Below, one piece after another: positions 1,406-62,034 of a stretch of 64,000 nucleotides of DNA. Below the pieces are notes generated by a model. That model worked only from the letters and a program-made list of their open reading frames with translations. It was not told the DNA's origin and made no database searches. Source of the stretch: a virus; IMG/VR virus record IMGVR_UViG_3300040801_004562, positions 34,253-98,252 of that record, one strand, 5' to 3'. Both the position numbers and the translations under genes were made by a program. Each line of letters begins with the position of its first letter. The stretch's first letter is position 1.

Positions 1406-1421
1406 TTGCAAACGTTTGCAA
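1406..1421. promoter_or_regulatory. 16-bp palindrome TTGCAAACGTTTGCAA, copy 1 of 10
   Basis: Perfect palindrome, intergenic. Confidence 0.85.
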
Positions 1422-1491
1422 ATTCCAGAAGACCACAGACCCGACACCTTTATATAGGCGCTCCCGCCAGACGAAAATTGCCGAAAGACGC

Positions 1492-1550
1492 TTTTTTTGC
1501 TTTAGTCGTCGAAACTTCTTGACGAAAAGAATAACATAGGGTAAATTGAA
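1492..1550 (+). promoter_or_regulatory. repeated early sigma70 promoter cassette, copy 1
   Basis: TTGACG(1519)-17 bp-TAAATT within a ~55-bp element repeated 5 times. Confidence 0.85.
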
Positions 1551-1589
1551 ACCATGATCACAAACCCCAACAGCATAGGAGGCGCCACC

Positions 1590-1910
1590 ATGTCAGACTT
1601 CCAAGTTGTCGGTGTCAAAGTCCAAAAAGCGGAGAAGGCCAGTCAGAAATGTCGGATTTACATCCATCCGGAGAGCTTCTCGGTTGCCCAGAATTTTATT
1701 GATCGGGCCTACCGGGGCGGGGCTGTCGAGCCCCACAAGATCTACAGAAAACTGGTCCTGCCGGAGGTTCTTGAGAAACTCGGCCTGCCTGCGGATGGTG
1801 TGAAGTTTGGGTGGAGCCGCAAGGCCGGTTGCTCCTGCGGCTGCAGCCCCGGCTTTGTCTGCAACAGCGGGCATCTGTTCGGCAAGGATGTCTTTGTCAC
1901 CATCAAATAA
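1590..1910 (+). CDS. hypothetical protein with WSxxAGCxCGCSPGF motif (paralog of 2710..3015)
   Basis: SD AGGAGG; shared motif with paralog. Confidence 0.8.
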   Translation: MSDFQVVGVKVQKAEKASQKCRIYIHPESFSVAQNFIDRAYRGGAVEPHKIYRKLVLPEVLEKLGLPADGVKFGWSRKAGCSCGCSPGFVCNSGHLFGKDVFVTIK

Positions 1911-1917
1911 TTCAGCC

Positions 1918-1935
1918 GGGGGGCTTCGGCCCCCC
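1918..1935 (+). repeat. intergenic GGGGGGC-TTCG-GCCCCCC hairpin (family also at 2214, 2650, 3022, 4653, 4999, 5359)
   Basis: 7 similar GC hairpins, each just after a stop codon. Confidence 0.85.
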
Positions 1936-1951
1936 TGAAAGGAGATCAAAA

Positions 1952-2194
1952 ATGTTCGTGACCCAGCCTGCAAAGAGACAGCCCGTTTCCCGGAAACTCT
2001 ATTATGCCATCTACAAAACCCAGGACGGCCTGGAGTTTCATGTCGGCCGTAAGATCCTGGAGGTTGCCCGCAGAGAGTCCCTGTCCCAGTCGATCCCTTC
2101 TGCTTCCCCTCTCAGAGAGATGGTTCTCAGTGACTGGAGACGTCAGGTTAGGATTTACCGCATGGCCAAGGTTGCTGATGAGAGCGAGTCCTGA
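1952..2194 (+). CDS. hypothetical protein
   Basis: SD AAGGAG before ATG 1952; flanked by hairpins. Confidence 0.65.
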   Translation: MFVTQPAKRQPVSRKLYYAIYKTQDGLEFHVGRKILEVARRESLSQSIPSASPLREMVLSDWRRQVRIYRMAKVADESES

Positions 2195-60629: not shown

Positions 60630-60630
60630 C

Positions 60631-60659
60631 TTGACGAAATTTTTTAACTGGTATATAAT
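60631..60659 (+). promoter_or_regulatory. near-consensus sigma70 promoter
   Basis: TTGACG-17-TATAAT immediately after the MuF stop. Confidence 0.75.
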
Positions 60660-60664
60660 AAGCT

Positions 60665-61147
60665 ATGGATGAAATCTTAAGCCTCACGACAGGATTGGAC
60701 AACGAATTCGAGGGATACCTCCGTCGGGACGACCGCTACCACCGGTTCACCTTCTCAAAGGGCGGGCTGAAGATAGAGGACACCTGGGAGGTTGGTGAAT
60801 TCGATAGCTATGAGCACTTTGCCATGCGGATTGGGAAGTGGGACGAGGAAGCGATATTCCTGGTCAAGCCGATCCCGATCAAGGAAATTAACTTGGAGTC
60901 CCTGCTCGCGGCCTCCGAGGCAGTTTTTTTGGTCCTTGCGGACGATGACGACCCGGCGGATGTCAGCCGGAAACTCGCACGCGTTGTCAGCTCCCCTCTC
61001 TTTCTGTTTCAGCCCTTCGACTTCCGGGAGGATTTCCGGAAGCAGGCGACGAAGGCAAAGCGCCTGTCTGACTTGCCTAAAGAGTACCAAGAATTTATTC
61101 CGGAGGCGCTCGATTCGATAGGTCAAGACGTATGGAGCATGAAATAG
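60665..61147 (+). CDS. acidic hypothetical protein (candidate MuF-effector immunity)
   Basis: Directly follows MuF, with its own promoter. Confidence 0.6.
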   Translation: MDEILSLTTGLDNEFEGYLRRDDRYHRFTFSKGGLKIEDTWEVGEFDSYEHFAMRIGKWDEEAIFLVKPIPIKEINLESLLAASEAVFLVLADDDDPADVSRKLARVVSSPLFLFQPFDFREDFRKQATKAKRLSDLPKEYQEFIPEALDSIGQDVWSMK

Positions 61148-61734
61148 TCCCAAGCGTAGAGCGTTTGAAGCCGATGCTCTATGATCTCTTAAAGACCGCC
61201 TGCGCCCCGCAGGATTCCCCATCCCCGGCCACGGTGACCCAGCAGCTCGGGGTCAGCATGACCAACGCCGTGAAGCGTGAGGGGGTGAATATCATCCAAA
61301 TCCAGAACGTGAAGATGGAGTCGATCATCCCGAAGATCGTTGATCTGCTGCAGATGGTGGACACCCTGACACTTTTACAGGCCCCGGAAATTAACAGTGG
61401 CTATAGGGAACTCATTAACGAGAAGGCCCCTTTGCGTATAGTGGGGGCGGGGGTTTGCGAGGAGAGTGGCCATAAAACGCCCTCAGATCCCCAGGAGGCT
61501 GCTTTGGCCCCATTATGTGAGTATGCGTATGCCCGGAACCTGAACGATAGGCAGCTCGTCGATCTGGTGCGCGTCTTCTACGTTGATTTCCTGACTGCAG
61601 AGCTGGGGGAAAAAAAGAAGGCTCTGGAGTTTGTCGGGCTGTCGAACAGCTCGGTCTACACCGCAAAAAAGAGACTGGGAGGCGAAGATGCCAACGCCGA
61701 AGAGGGGGGAGTCGGAGAAAGATTTTGTAAGTAG
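61132..61734 (+). CDS. hypothetical protein with Fis-like C-terminal HTH
   Basis: GEKKKALEFVGLSNSSVYTAKKRL. Confidence 0.55.
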   Translation: MEHEIVPSVERLKPMLYDLLKTACAPQDSPSPATVTQQLGVSMTNAVKREGVNIIQIQNVKMESIIPKIVDLLQMVDTLTLLQAPEINSGYRELINEKAPLRIVGAGVCEESGHKTPSDPQEAALAPLCEYAYARNLNDRQLVDLVRVFYVDFLTAELGEKKKALEFVGLSNSSVYTAKKRLGGEDANAEEGGVGERFCK

Positions 61735-61993
61735 ATGCGTCCCCTATGTGCTGGACGAGGGGAAAATCACGGACCCAAAACAAGCGGCAGCAGTCTGCCA
61801 TTCACTATGGAGGAACAGAGAAAAGATGAGCTTTCAAGAAGACAACCCGTATTTCAGAGGTGGAGAGGCGGTCAGCAGCATCGGGGACCTCAGTGCAATG
61901 GAGGACGAGATCCGGAATATCCCGCTGCCTGATGAATTGAGGGCAGACAAGATTCGGGAGTCGGAGCTGGATTATTACTTGTCCCAGCCGTAG
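61688..61993 (+). CDS. conserved phage protein
   Basis: MPTPKRGESEKDFVSRC...QAAAVCHSLW motif; SD GGAGG. Confidence 0.7.
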   Translation: MPTPKRGESEKDFVSRCVPYVLDEGKITDPKQAAAVCHSLWRNREKMSFQEDNPYFRGGEAVSSIGDLSAMEDEIRNIPLPDELRADKIRESELDYYLSQP

Positions 61994-62018
61994 AGCCATT
62001 CACGTAATGCGCCAAACT

Positions 62019-62034
62019 TTGCAAACGTTTGCAA
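62019..62034. promoter_or_regulatory. 16-bp palindrome, copy 10
   Basis: Perfect; intergenic. Confidence 0.85.

Follow-up and report, generated by a model that had tools for sequence, protein, structure and literature searches.

The IMG/VR virus contig IMGVR_UViG_3300040801_004562 is 98,252 bp long with an estimated completeness of 80%, and the window analysed here comprises 64,000 nucleotides, bases 34253-98252 of this contig. A perfect 16-bp palindrome, TTGCAAACGTTTGCAA, is found dispersed over this DNA, and the nature of these sites and of the protein that may read them is the subject of this text. A first-pass annotation of the window listed ten perfect copies, and an exact match is found at each of the ten positions (Table 1), while no additional copy with one or two mismatches is present in the window. 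The number of matches expected by chance is 0.03 (mean of 100 dinucleotide shuffles). A count over the full genome had been proposed as a check, and it gives 17 perfect copies in the contig and four near-copies, of which two have one mismatch and two have two. The dyad is weakly extended by the flanks, to tTTGCAAACGTTTGCAAa, and the conservation ends at about 18-20 bp. A gene call based on codon usage places nearly all genes of the contig on the + strand. No tRNA was found in a search of the window, and no near relative was revealed among 50,697 phage records by megablast with the first 20 kb as query.

Even though about 90% of the contig is coding, 12 of the 21 sites are intergenic, and seven of these begin 1-6 nt past a stop codon. 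In long intergenic gaps the order is stop codon, palindrome, terminator hairpin and promoter cassette, as seen at window positions 3690 and 5974. In short gaps, as at 18608, the site is squeezed between the stop codon and the ribosome-binding site that follows. The annotation had noted copies just after stop codons and copies upstream of promoters. The former is correct for 3690, 5974, 18608 and 33404, which begin 2-6 nt past a stop codon, and the latter for 50443, where the copy ends 10 nt 5' of a promoter-like TTGACA hexamer. Three of the contig sites precede an early promoter cassette by 67-105 bp (centre to -35), and other sites are far from promoters. Across the genomes described below, about half of the sites are not fully coding, and between a fifth and half of them begin at most 12 nt past a stop codon.

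Three copies had been described as lying inside coding sequence and being read as LQTFA(K/N), and they indeed encode LQTFAK (29345 and 50443) and LQTFAN (41341). For copies in conserved parts of genes the alignments with orthologues are free of indels, and these copies must therefore have arisen by substitution and not by insertion. The gene at 29345 illustrates this, as it aligns without an indel to orthologues that do not contain the motif; whether orthologues lack LQTFA was another check that the annotation had suggested. The apparent in-gene copies near the 3' ends of genes are found in C-terminal extensions that are missing from the orthologues. One site place at a gene 3' end is common to the contig and the relative G001, and is read as LQTFAK here and as LQAIAK, which corresponds to G001's own motif, there. 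Some places retain a site between genomes while its sequence shifts together with that of the other sites. Taken together, the indel-free in-gene copies, the conserved place with a changed motif and the large non-coding share of the sites argue that selection acts on the DNA.

Relatives were gathered by a search with the major capsid protein, which identified 155 IMG/VR genomes. The closest cultured relatives, with about 48-50% identity, are the Stenotrophomonas phages DLP5, DLP3 and Summit, Vibrio siphoviruses such as VH2_2019, and the Rhodobacter phage RcZahn. Nearly every relative has a high-copy dyad of its own, with 10-53 copies (Table 1) that follow the general pattern TG(C/A)A(A/C)-N4-(T/G)T(G/T)CA. 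G020 contains the exact motif of the contig despite a capsid protein that is only 24% identical. The motif is a genuine feature that deviates strongly from randomness and is found throughout the family. An artefact of assembly or adapters, which would have explained the observation away, is excluded, since motifs of this kind recur in numerous independent assemblies and also in the genomes of cultured phages, and lie in frame within conserved genes. A literature search found none of 12 motif strings from the family, including those of DLP5 and VH2_2019, in a phage context, and nothing relevant on dispersed phage palindromes together with ParB. The motif is not mentioned in the DLP3 paper or in the R. 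capsulatus phage paper.

Some relatives have the non-palindromic centres TCAA, TAAA or TTAAC. Each of these genomes uses a single such centre, in both orientations, despite having its genes on one strand; DLP5 has 18 sites in one orientation and eight in the other, while the split is 16:15 in G008. The use of both orientations in genomes with genes on one strand thus points to a site in double-stranded DNA rather than an RNA signal.

The search for a protein reading these sites was performed by clustering all proteins of 22 genomes. One protein family without an assigned function, belonging to phrog_17202, is present in 22 of the 22. Its member in the contig is P0121, a protein of 308 amino acids encoded outside the window, and its counterparts are gp067 (DLP05_067) in DLP5 and the product of gene 9 in VH2_2019. 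P0121 has no match in Pfam and no sequence match in the PDB. The AlphaFold model of P0121, with a predicted local distance difference test (pLDDT) score of 81, gives local matches in Foldseek to the DNA-binding domains of ParB, Spo0J and Noc, with a root-mean-square deviation (rmsd) of 3.6-4.3 Å over 103-122 columns. In a search independent of Foldseek the top match is the ParB-parS complex 6s6h (Z 8.9; 134 of 140 residues aligned), with Spo0J 1vz0 in third place (Z 8.4; rmsd of 3.1 Å over 107 residues) and the KorB-operator complex 1r71 in seventh (Z 6.9; 106 of 114 residues aligned). Taken alone, this match of a modelled fold to the ParB/KorB DNA-binding domains is suggestive. In up to nine of the 22 genomes a site is found 50-95 bp upstream of the start of this candidate reader gene, and a near-copy in the contig begins 21 nt past the P0121 stop codon. 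Sites flanking this gene would be the pattern expected of an autoregulated gene. In the P0121 clade a C-terminal linker rich in Lys and Glu is followed by a conserved tail, D(I/L)(D/N)xLLG(L/I), which may be a partner-binding peptide. The members from the DLP5 clade have no such tail and carry an N-terminal extension instead.

The putative recognition helix of this family (residues 80-94) was compared to the half-site consensus in 55 non-redundant genomes or loci, after adding 71 further loci with this gene that were recruited using two narrower family alignments. All genomes with TGCAA arms have the helix Y-R-K-A-(M/T/S/R)-Y or a close variant, and the distant G020 has the exact motif of the contig along with its helix residues, YRKAMY. 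K or R occupies residue 87 in 47 of the 48 genomes with C at arm base 3, and all four genomes with A at this base, which are deep-branching, have T, S, I or P there (Fisher p = 2e-5). An acidic residue, E or D, is found at residue 89 in each of the three genomes with CGCAA arms, and these belong to two separate clades (p about 5e-4). Both p-values ignore shared ancestry. Y-W at residues 90-91 is always found together with a TTAA centre (nine of nine), and these genomes are possibly one clade. Contacts of lysine or arginine to a G:C pair, and of an acidic residue to cytosine, make chemical sense in general, and such contacts may be made here at residues 87 and 89.

Judged from the presence of this family in all genomes compared, its modelled fold and this covariation, the palindromes are probably docking sites in double-stranded DNA for a dimeric phage protein with a ParB/KorB-type helix-turn-helix (HTH), here P0121, and moderate confidence can be placed in this assignment. 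Each half of the dyad would then be read by one recognition helix of the P0121 dimer, and when the helix changes between phages, all sites would change along with it. The sites form a lattice over the whole chromosome similar to the KorB operators of RK2.

Several observations weigh against P0121 as the reader, besides the shared ancestry that the p-values do not take into account. A profile of the candidate reader family gave nothing when searched against PDB sequences, and showed no similarity to the ParB_N-like family of the phage when the two profiles were compared. The P0121 domain is predicted and all-helical, and Z scores of 7-9 can come from a common helical arrangement; the RuBisCO accumulation factor Raf1 scores about as high against the model. 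Residues 85-100 were placed on the recognition helix by aligned ranges and not by residue-by-residue superposition. The genome L339, which has GGCAA arms, is an exception to the residue-87 rule, and residue 89 is acidic also in two genomes without CGCAA arms. A symmetric dimer gives no account of a uniform non-palindromic centre such as TCAA. Finally, the P0121 gene belongs to the module for replication and recombination, and a function in either process is as plausible as one in silencing.

According to the first-pass annotation a ParB might be encoded outside the window, and two ParB-related genes are in fact found upstream of it. One encodes P0121, with its predicted ParB/KorB-type DNA-binding fold, and the other a ParB_N-like protein of 301 amino acids, which also lies outside the window and has a palindrome beginning 2 nt past its stop codon. 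The binders suggested from within the window, a BlaI-like winged HTH at 8378 and a Fis-like HTH at 61132, find no support, as these open reading frames (ORFs) have no match in Pfam or PHROGs and essentially no homologues in the motif-bearing relatives.

The ParB_N-like protein matches Pfam ParB_N (E = 4e-5) and, among PDB sequences, Spo0J from H. pylori, and its model aligns with Noc, ParB and KorB (E = 1e-7 over about 200 columns). The gene order glycosyltransferase, ParB-like, unknown gene, large terminase is kept in DLP5 and VH2_2019, where the orthologues are annotated as "ParBc" (DLP5 gp107) and "noc", respectively. These similarities make it conceivable that this protein is itself the reader, a complete orphan clamp of the ParB/KorB type, loading at the palindromes and then sliding. 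A site is found within 130 bp of the 3' end of its gene in six of 13 genomes, and its presence goes together with even spacing of the sites, as described below. It is nevertheless rather unlikely that it reads the palindromes. The protein is acidic (isoelectric point, pI, 4.75), the segment aligned to the ParB recognition helix has a net charge of -8 over 30 residues, and its arginine box is GEHR instead of GERR. The G020 protein is only 32% identical to that of the contig, yet the two genomes have the same exact motif. Furthermore, searches with BLAST and Pfam found no ParB_N-like protein in four genomes of 91-100% completeness that still have 8-30 copies of the motif.

In most genomes the sites are more evenly spaced than expected from random placement, with a coefficient of variation (CV) of 0.44-0.65 and a Fisher's combined p of 3e-14 over 18 genomes. 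In VH2_2019 the mean spacing is 2265 bp (CV 0.32, p = 5e-5). The CV is 0.44-0.76 in the 12 genomes where the ParB_N-like protein is present, while it is 0.70-1.24 in the four 91-100%-complete genomes without it (Mann-Whitney p = 0.003). The ParB_N-like protein is not required for the motif, but its presence goes along with even spacing. This hints that it works together with the reader and shapes the lattice. It is probably a partner of P0121, and may serve as a nucleotide-switch or spreading partner. Two local regularities were also seen: between 34 and 49 kb in VH2_2019 every spacing is 1.9-2.2 kb, and the window sites at 1406, 3690 and 5974 are exactly 2284 and 2284 bp apart. The latter is not the result of a tandem duplication, as the two segments are not colinear and only their promoter and terminator cassettes match, at shifted offsets.

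The position of many sites just past stop codons and upstream of terminators might also indicate that the dyads fold into hairpins, in RNA or in single-stranded DNA, or are sites of cleavage or nicking. They could then stabilise mRNA 3' ends, serve as processing sites or priming signals, or be cut by a phage nuclease to initiate recombination-dependent replication. Genes for RecA, a PD-(D/E)XK nuclease, endonuclease I-like and RuvC-like proteins, a primase and a ligase are present in the phage, and even spacing would suit priming or nicking. The predicted hairpins are, however, weak (-4.6 to -6.6 kcal/mol), lie only modestly below shuffled controls (z from -0.95 to -2.4) and lack a U-tract. 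Non-palindromic centres in both orientations do not fit with genes on one strand, and a hairpin does not explain why every base is identical or why the motif covaries with a protein helix. This explanation is improbable, though less clearly so for nicking or priming sites.

It is very unlikely that the sites are operators for a host regulator of the LacI/PurR type, by which the phage would titrate or sense a metabolic repressor of its host. The 12-bp core, GCAAACGTTTGC, is an ideal PurR/MalR-type operator core (e.g., PMC3159470; PMC4451989), and a scan of bacterial genomes for the 16-mer gave, among the matches listed, scattered single copies in diverse taxa, with no host or prophage identified. 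The contig motif has the central CG of a TGNAANCGNTTNCA-type dyad and so fits the LacI-family pattern, but the centres TCAA, TTAA and TAAA found in relatives lack the required CG while having the same placement and copy number, and some relatives use different arms as well. All 16-18 bp are invariant in the contig, which is beyond what a PurR operator requires, and the motif follows the helix of the phage protein and not the host group. The LacI family gave no match among the proteins scanned against Pfam and PHROGs, no scan of the contig specific for LacI being made.

Equally poor odds are given to a MerR-like protein of 150 amino acids as the reader. MerR/SoxR operators are 18-bp dyads with the same 7-4-7 architecture, and the protein matches Pfam MerR_1, is basic (pI 10) and is kept beside a helicase in many relatives, including DLP5 and VH2_2019. 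It is missing from the syntenic slot and without a BLAST match in G004, G005, G007, G015, G016 and G020, all of which have a strong motif. Its recognition helices differ among genomes with the same arms, and there is no conserved site near its gene.

Further candidates were rejected: intrinsic terminators (the hairpins are weak and followed by A-rich sequence, and separate true terminators are found after some of the sites); mobile palindromes of the REP/REPIN type (the in-gene copies are indel-free and the flanks are not conserved beyond about 18-20 bp, although no search specific for RAYT was made); promoters (there is no -10-like element at a fixed distance, and both orientations occur); and sigma-54 sites (by inspection of the sequence, the spacing is wrong and the GG dinucleotide is missing).

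Returning to P0121 as the candidate reader of the palindromes, the nearest described system is KorB/OB of the IncP-1 plasmid RK2, to which the phage system is similar in layout without being a strict member of the same family. KorB is a sliding clamp dependent on cytidine triphosphate (CTP) that is loaded at 12 dispersed OB palindromes, from which it silences promoters at distances of up to 1.5 kb (PMC11790492). In both cases one short palindrome is spread over the whole replicon at promoter-proximal and distal positions, and global control of the replicon is the likely outcome. The modelled fold of P0121 may correspond to the ParB-type DNA-binding fold of KorB, although Z values of this size are not decisive for a helical domain. 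The phage differs from RK2 in that the replicon is a tailed phage of about 100-120 kb with 17-53 evenly spaced sites, many of them in genes, and in that the DNA-binding fold and the ParB_N (CTPase-like) fold seem to be placed on two separate proteins. No IncC/ParA was found in the phage, no KorA equivalent was identified, and there is no sequence similarity to KorB.

The sites also resemble chromosomal parS in being 16-bp perfect palindromes with an ACGT centre, and the NBS sites of Noc in being many and dispersed, and the best structural matches of the P0121 model are the DNA-binding domains of ParB and Spo0J. Unlike parS, they are dispersed and not clustered near an origin, and some relatives have non-palindromic centres. 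The candidate reader lacks the ParB_N domain of a ParB, and the phage protein that is ParB_N-like has an acidic helix at the DNA-reading position. ParA-type ATPases (Pfam AAA_31, CbiA) were found neither in the contig nor in four relatives of 96-100% completeness, while the control genomes all scored; a host ParA is possible. Classical partition is unlikely because of this lack of a ParA-type ATPase.

Cluster A mycobacteriophage stoperators are asymmetric and oriented with transcription. They share with the phage sites that dozens of near-identical copies exist, often at gene junctions, and that the sequence varies with the binding protein between phages. The phage sites are, in contrast, dyad-symmetric, and where the centre is asymmetric it is found in both orientations. 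The general idea of the first-pass annotation, a genome-wide binding-site system like parS or KorB, is thus retained in the form of sites for a dimeric protein, while classical partition is not, and the stoperator parallel fails on symmetry and orientation.

The purpose of the lattice is likely to be genome-wide transcriptional silencing or organisation of the chromosome, for instance in a plasmid-like prophage. Persistence as phagemids has been reported for DLP5 and DLP3 (PMC7326821), and would give a silencing or maintenance function a setting. More broadly, we infer a purpose among silencing, organisation, maintenance and replication.

A more far-reaching and tentative proposal, which is more doubtful than the assignment of P0121 as the reader, is that the whole siphovirus family (DLP5-like, SSP002/VH2-like Vibrio, RcZahn-like and uncultured phages) runs a split two-protein ParB/KorB machine without ParA. 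The universal protein with the DNA-binding fold would then mark palindromes 2-5 kb apart, while the ParB_N-type partner would set the even spacing, for example by a limited sliding range. Together the pair would coat, silence or organise the viral chromosome in the absence of ParA. Fast co-evolution of site and helix would give each phage a private code, which might be used in self-recognition or in immunity between relatives.

Both RK2, through KorB, and bacterial chromosomes, through Noc, are known to have genome-wide lattices of operators that a ParB-type protein reads, and a literature search found no paper describing such a lattice in a tailed phage or in the DLP5/VH2_2019-like family. 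If P0121 is the reader, this would provide a function for phrog_17202, a protein carried by every member of a large phage family, and would explain why exact palindromes of 14-18 bp are written into coding sequence. Residues 87 and 89 set against arm bases 3 and 1 would constitute a natural series of co-evolved protein-DNA specificities. The apparent split between the reader and the ParB_N-like protein, and the link of the latter to the regularity of the lattice, would bear on how CTP-switch clamps work and evolve. The system is testable, since DLP5, DLP3 and Vibrio phage VH2_2019 are cultured carriers.

Table 1. Palindrome copies, candidate readers, motifs of related phages and other features. 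Coordinates refer to the window unless marked as contig; labels of the type G001 are working names of relatives.
Feature	Coordinates	Strand	Remarks
Palindrome copy	1406-1421		Intergenic; 105 bp (centre to -35) upstream of early-type promoter cassette
Palindrome copy	3690-3705		6 nt past stop codon; followed by terminator hairpin, then early promoter cassette
Palindrome copy	5974-5989		2 nt past stop codon; followed by terminator hairpin, then early promoter cassette
Palindrome copy	13371-13386		Intergenic
Palindrome copy	18608-18623		2 nt past stop codon; ribosome-binding site of next gene adjoins, start codon 17 nt downstream
Palindrome copy	29345-29360		Inside gene for 166 amino acids (LQTFAK); indel-free alignment to orthologues without motif
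Palindrome copy	33404-33419		2 nt past stop codon; 40 nt before next start codon
Palindrome copy	41341-41356		Inside ORF of 81 amino acids (LQTFAN)
Palindrome copy	50443-50458		Non-conserved C-terminal extension of glycosyltransferase gene; 14 nt before stop codon; TTGACA 10 nt downstream
Palindrome copy	62019-62034		Intergenic
Candidate reader P0121	contig 10321-11247	+	
ParB_N-like protein	contig 18608-19513		
MerR-like protein	contig 4640-5092		
Motif of G001, G002			TGCAAGCG(C/A)TTGCA; 16-17 exact copies
Motif of G003			TGCAATAAATTGCA; 20 copies
Motif of G006			CGCAAACGTTTGCG; 20 copies
Motif of G007			TGCAATCGATTGCA; 21 copies
Motif of G008			TGAAATCAATTTCA; 31 copies
Motif of G018			TGCACACGTGTGCA; 10 copies
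Motif of G020			TGCAAACGTTTGCA; 44-53 copies
Motif of DLP5 (cultured)			TGCAATCAATTGCA; 26 exact copies
Motif type of VH2_2019 (MN794238.1)			TGCAATTAA(C/T)TGCA; 21 sites in bases 1-50000
Early-type promoter cassette, about 80 nt, five copies	1489-1568, 2250-2329, 3735-3814, 4692-4771, 6021-6100		T-run, then GCTTTAGTCGACGAAACTT, then TTGACG-17-TAAATT
GC-rich hairpin, four near-identical copies	1913-1941, 2209-2237, 2645-2673, 4648-4676		GGGGGGCTTCGGCCCCCC; terminator-like, early region
Second promoter-like family	7353, 12132, 50468, 62399		CTTGACAAAA...CACCTTTG.TAT
Direct repeat, 144 nt	1137-1280 and 62111-62254		72% identity
Repeat, 25 nt	884, 967, 62251		
Family A DNA polymerase	51158-53797		N-terminal domain of the uracil-DNA-glycosylase superfamily and 3'-5' exonuclease domain
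Recombination module	contig 6461-6952, 7129-8043, 7988-8632		RecA with T7 endonuclease I-like protein, PD-(D/E)XK nuclease and RuvC-like resolvase
Small acidic protein, 110 amino acids	contig 5049-5381		Beside RecA

Some further features of the contig are included in Table 1. Most copies of the early-type promoter cassette are situated behind a terminator hairpin, and the member of the second promoter-like family at 50468 is directly 3' of a palindrome. The small acidic protein is kept in 17 of the 22 genomes. The 144-nt direct repeat links both ends of the window, as does the 25-nt repeat.

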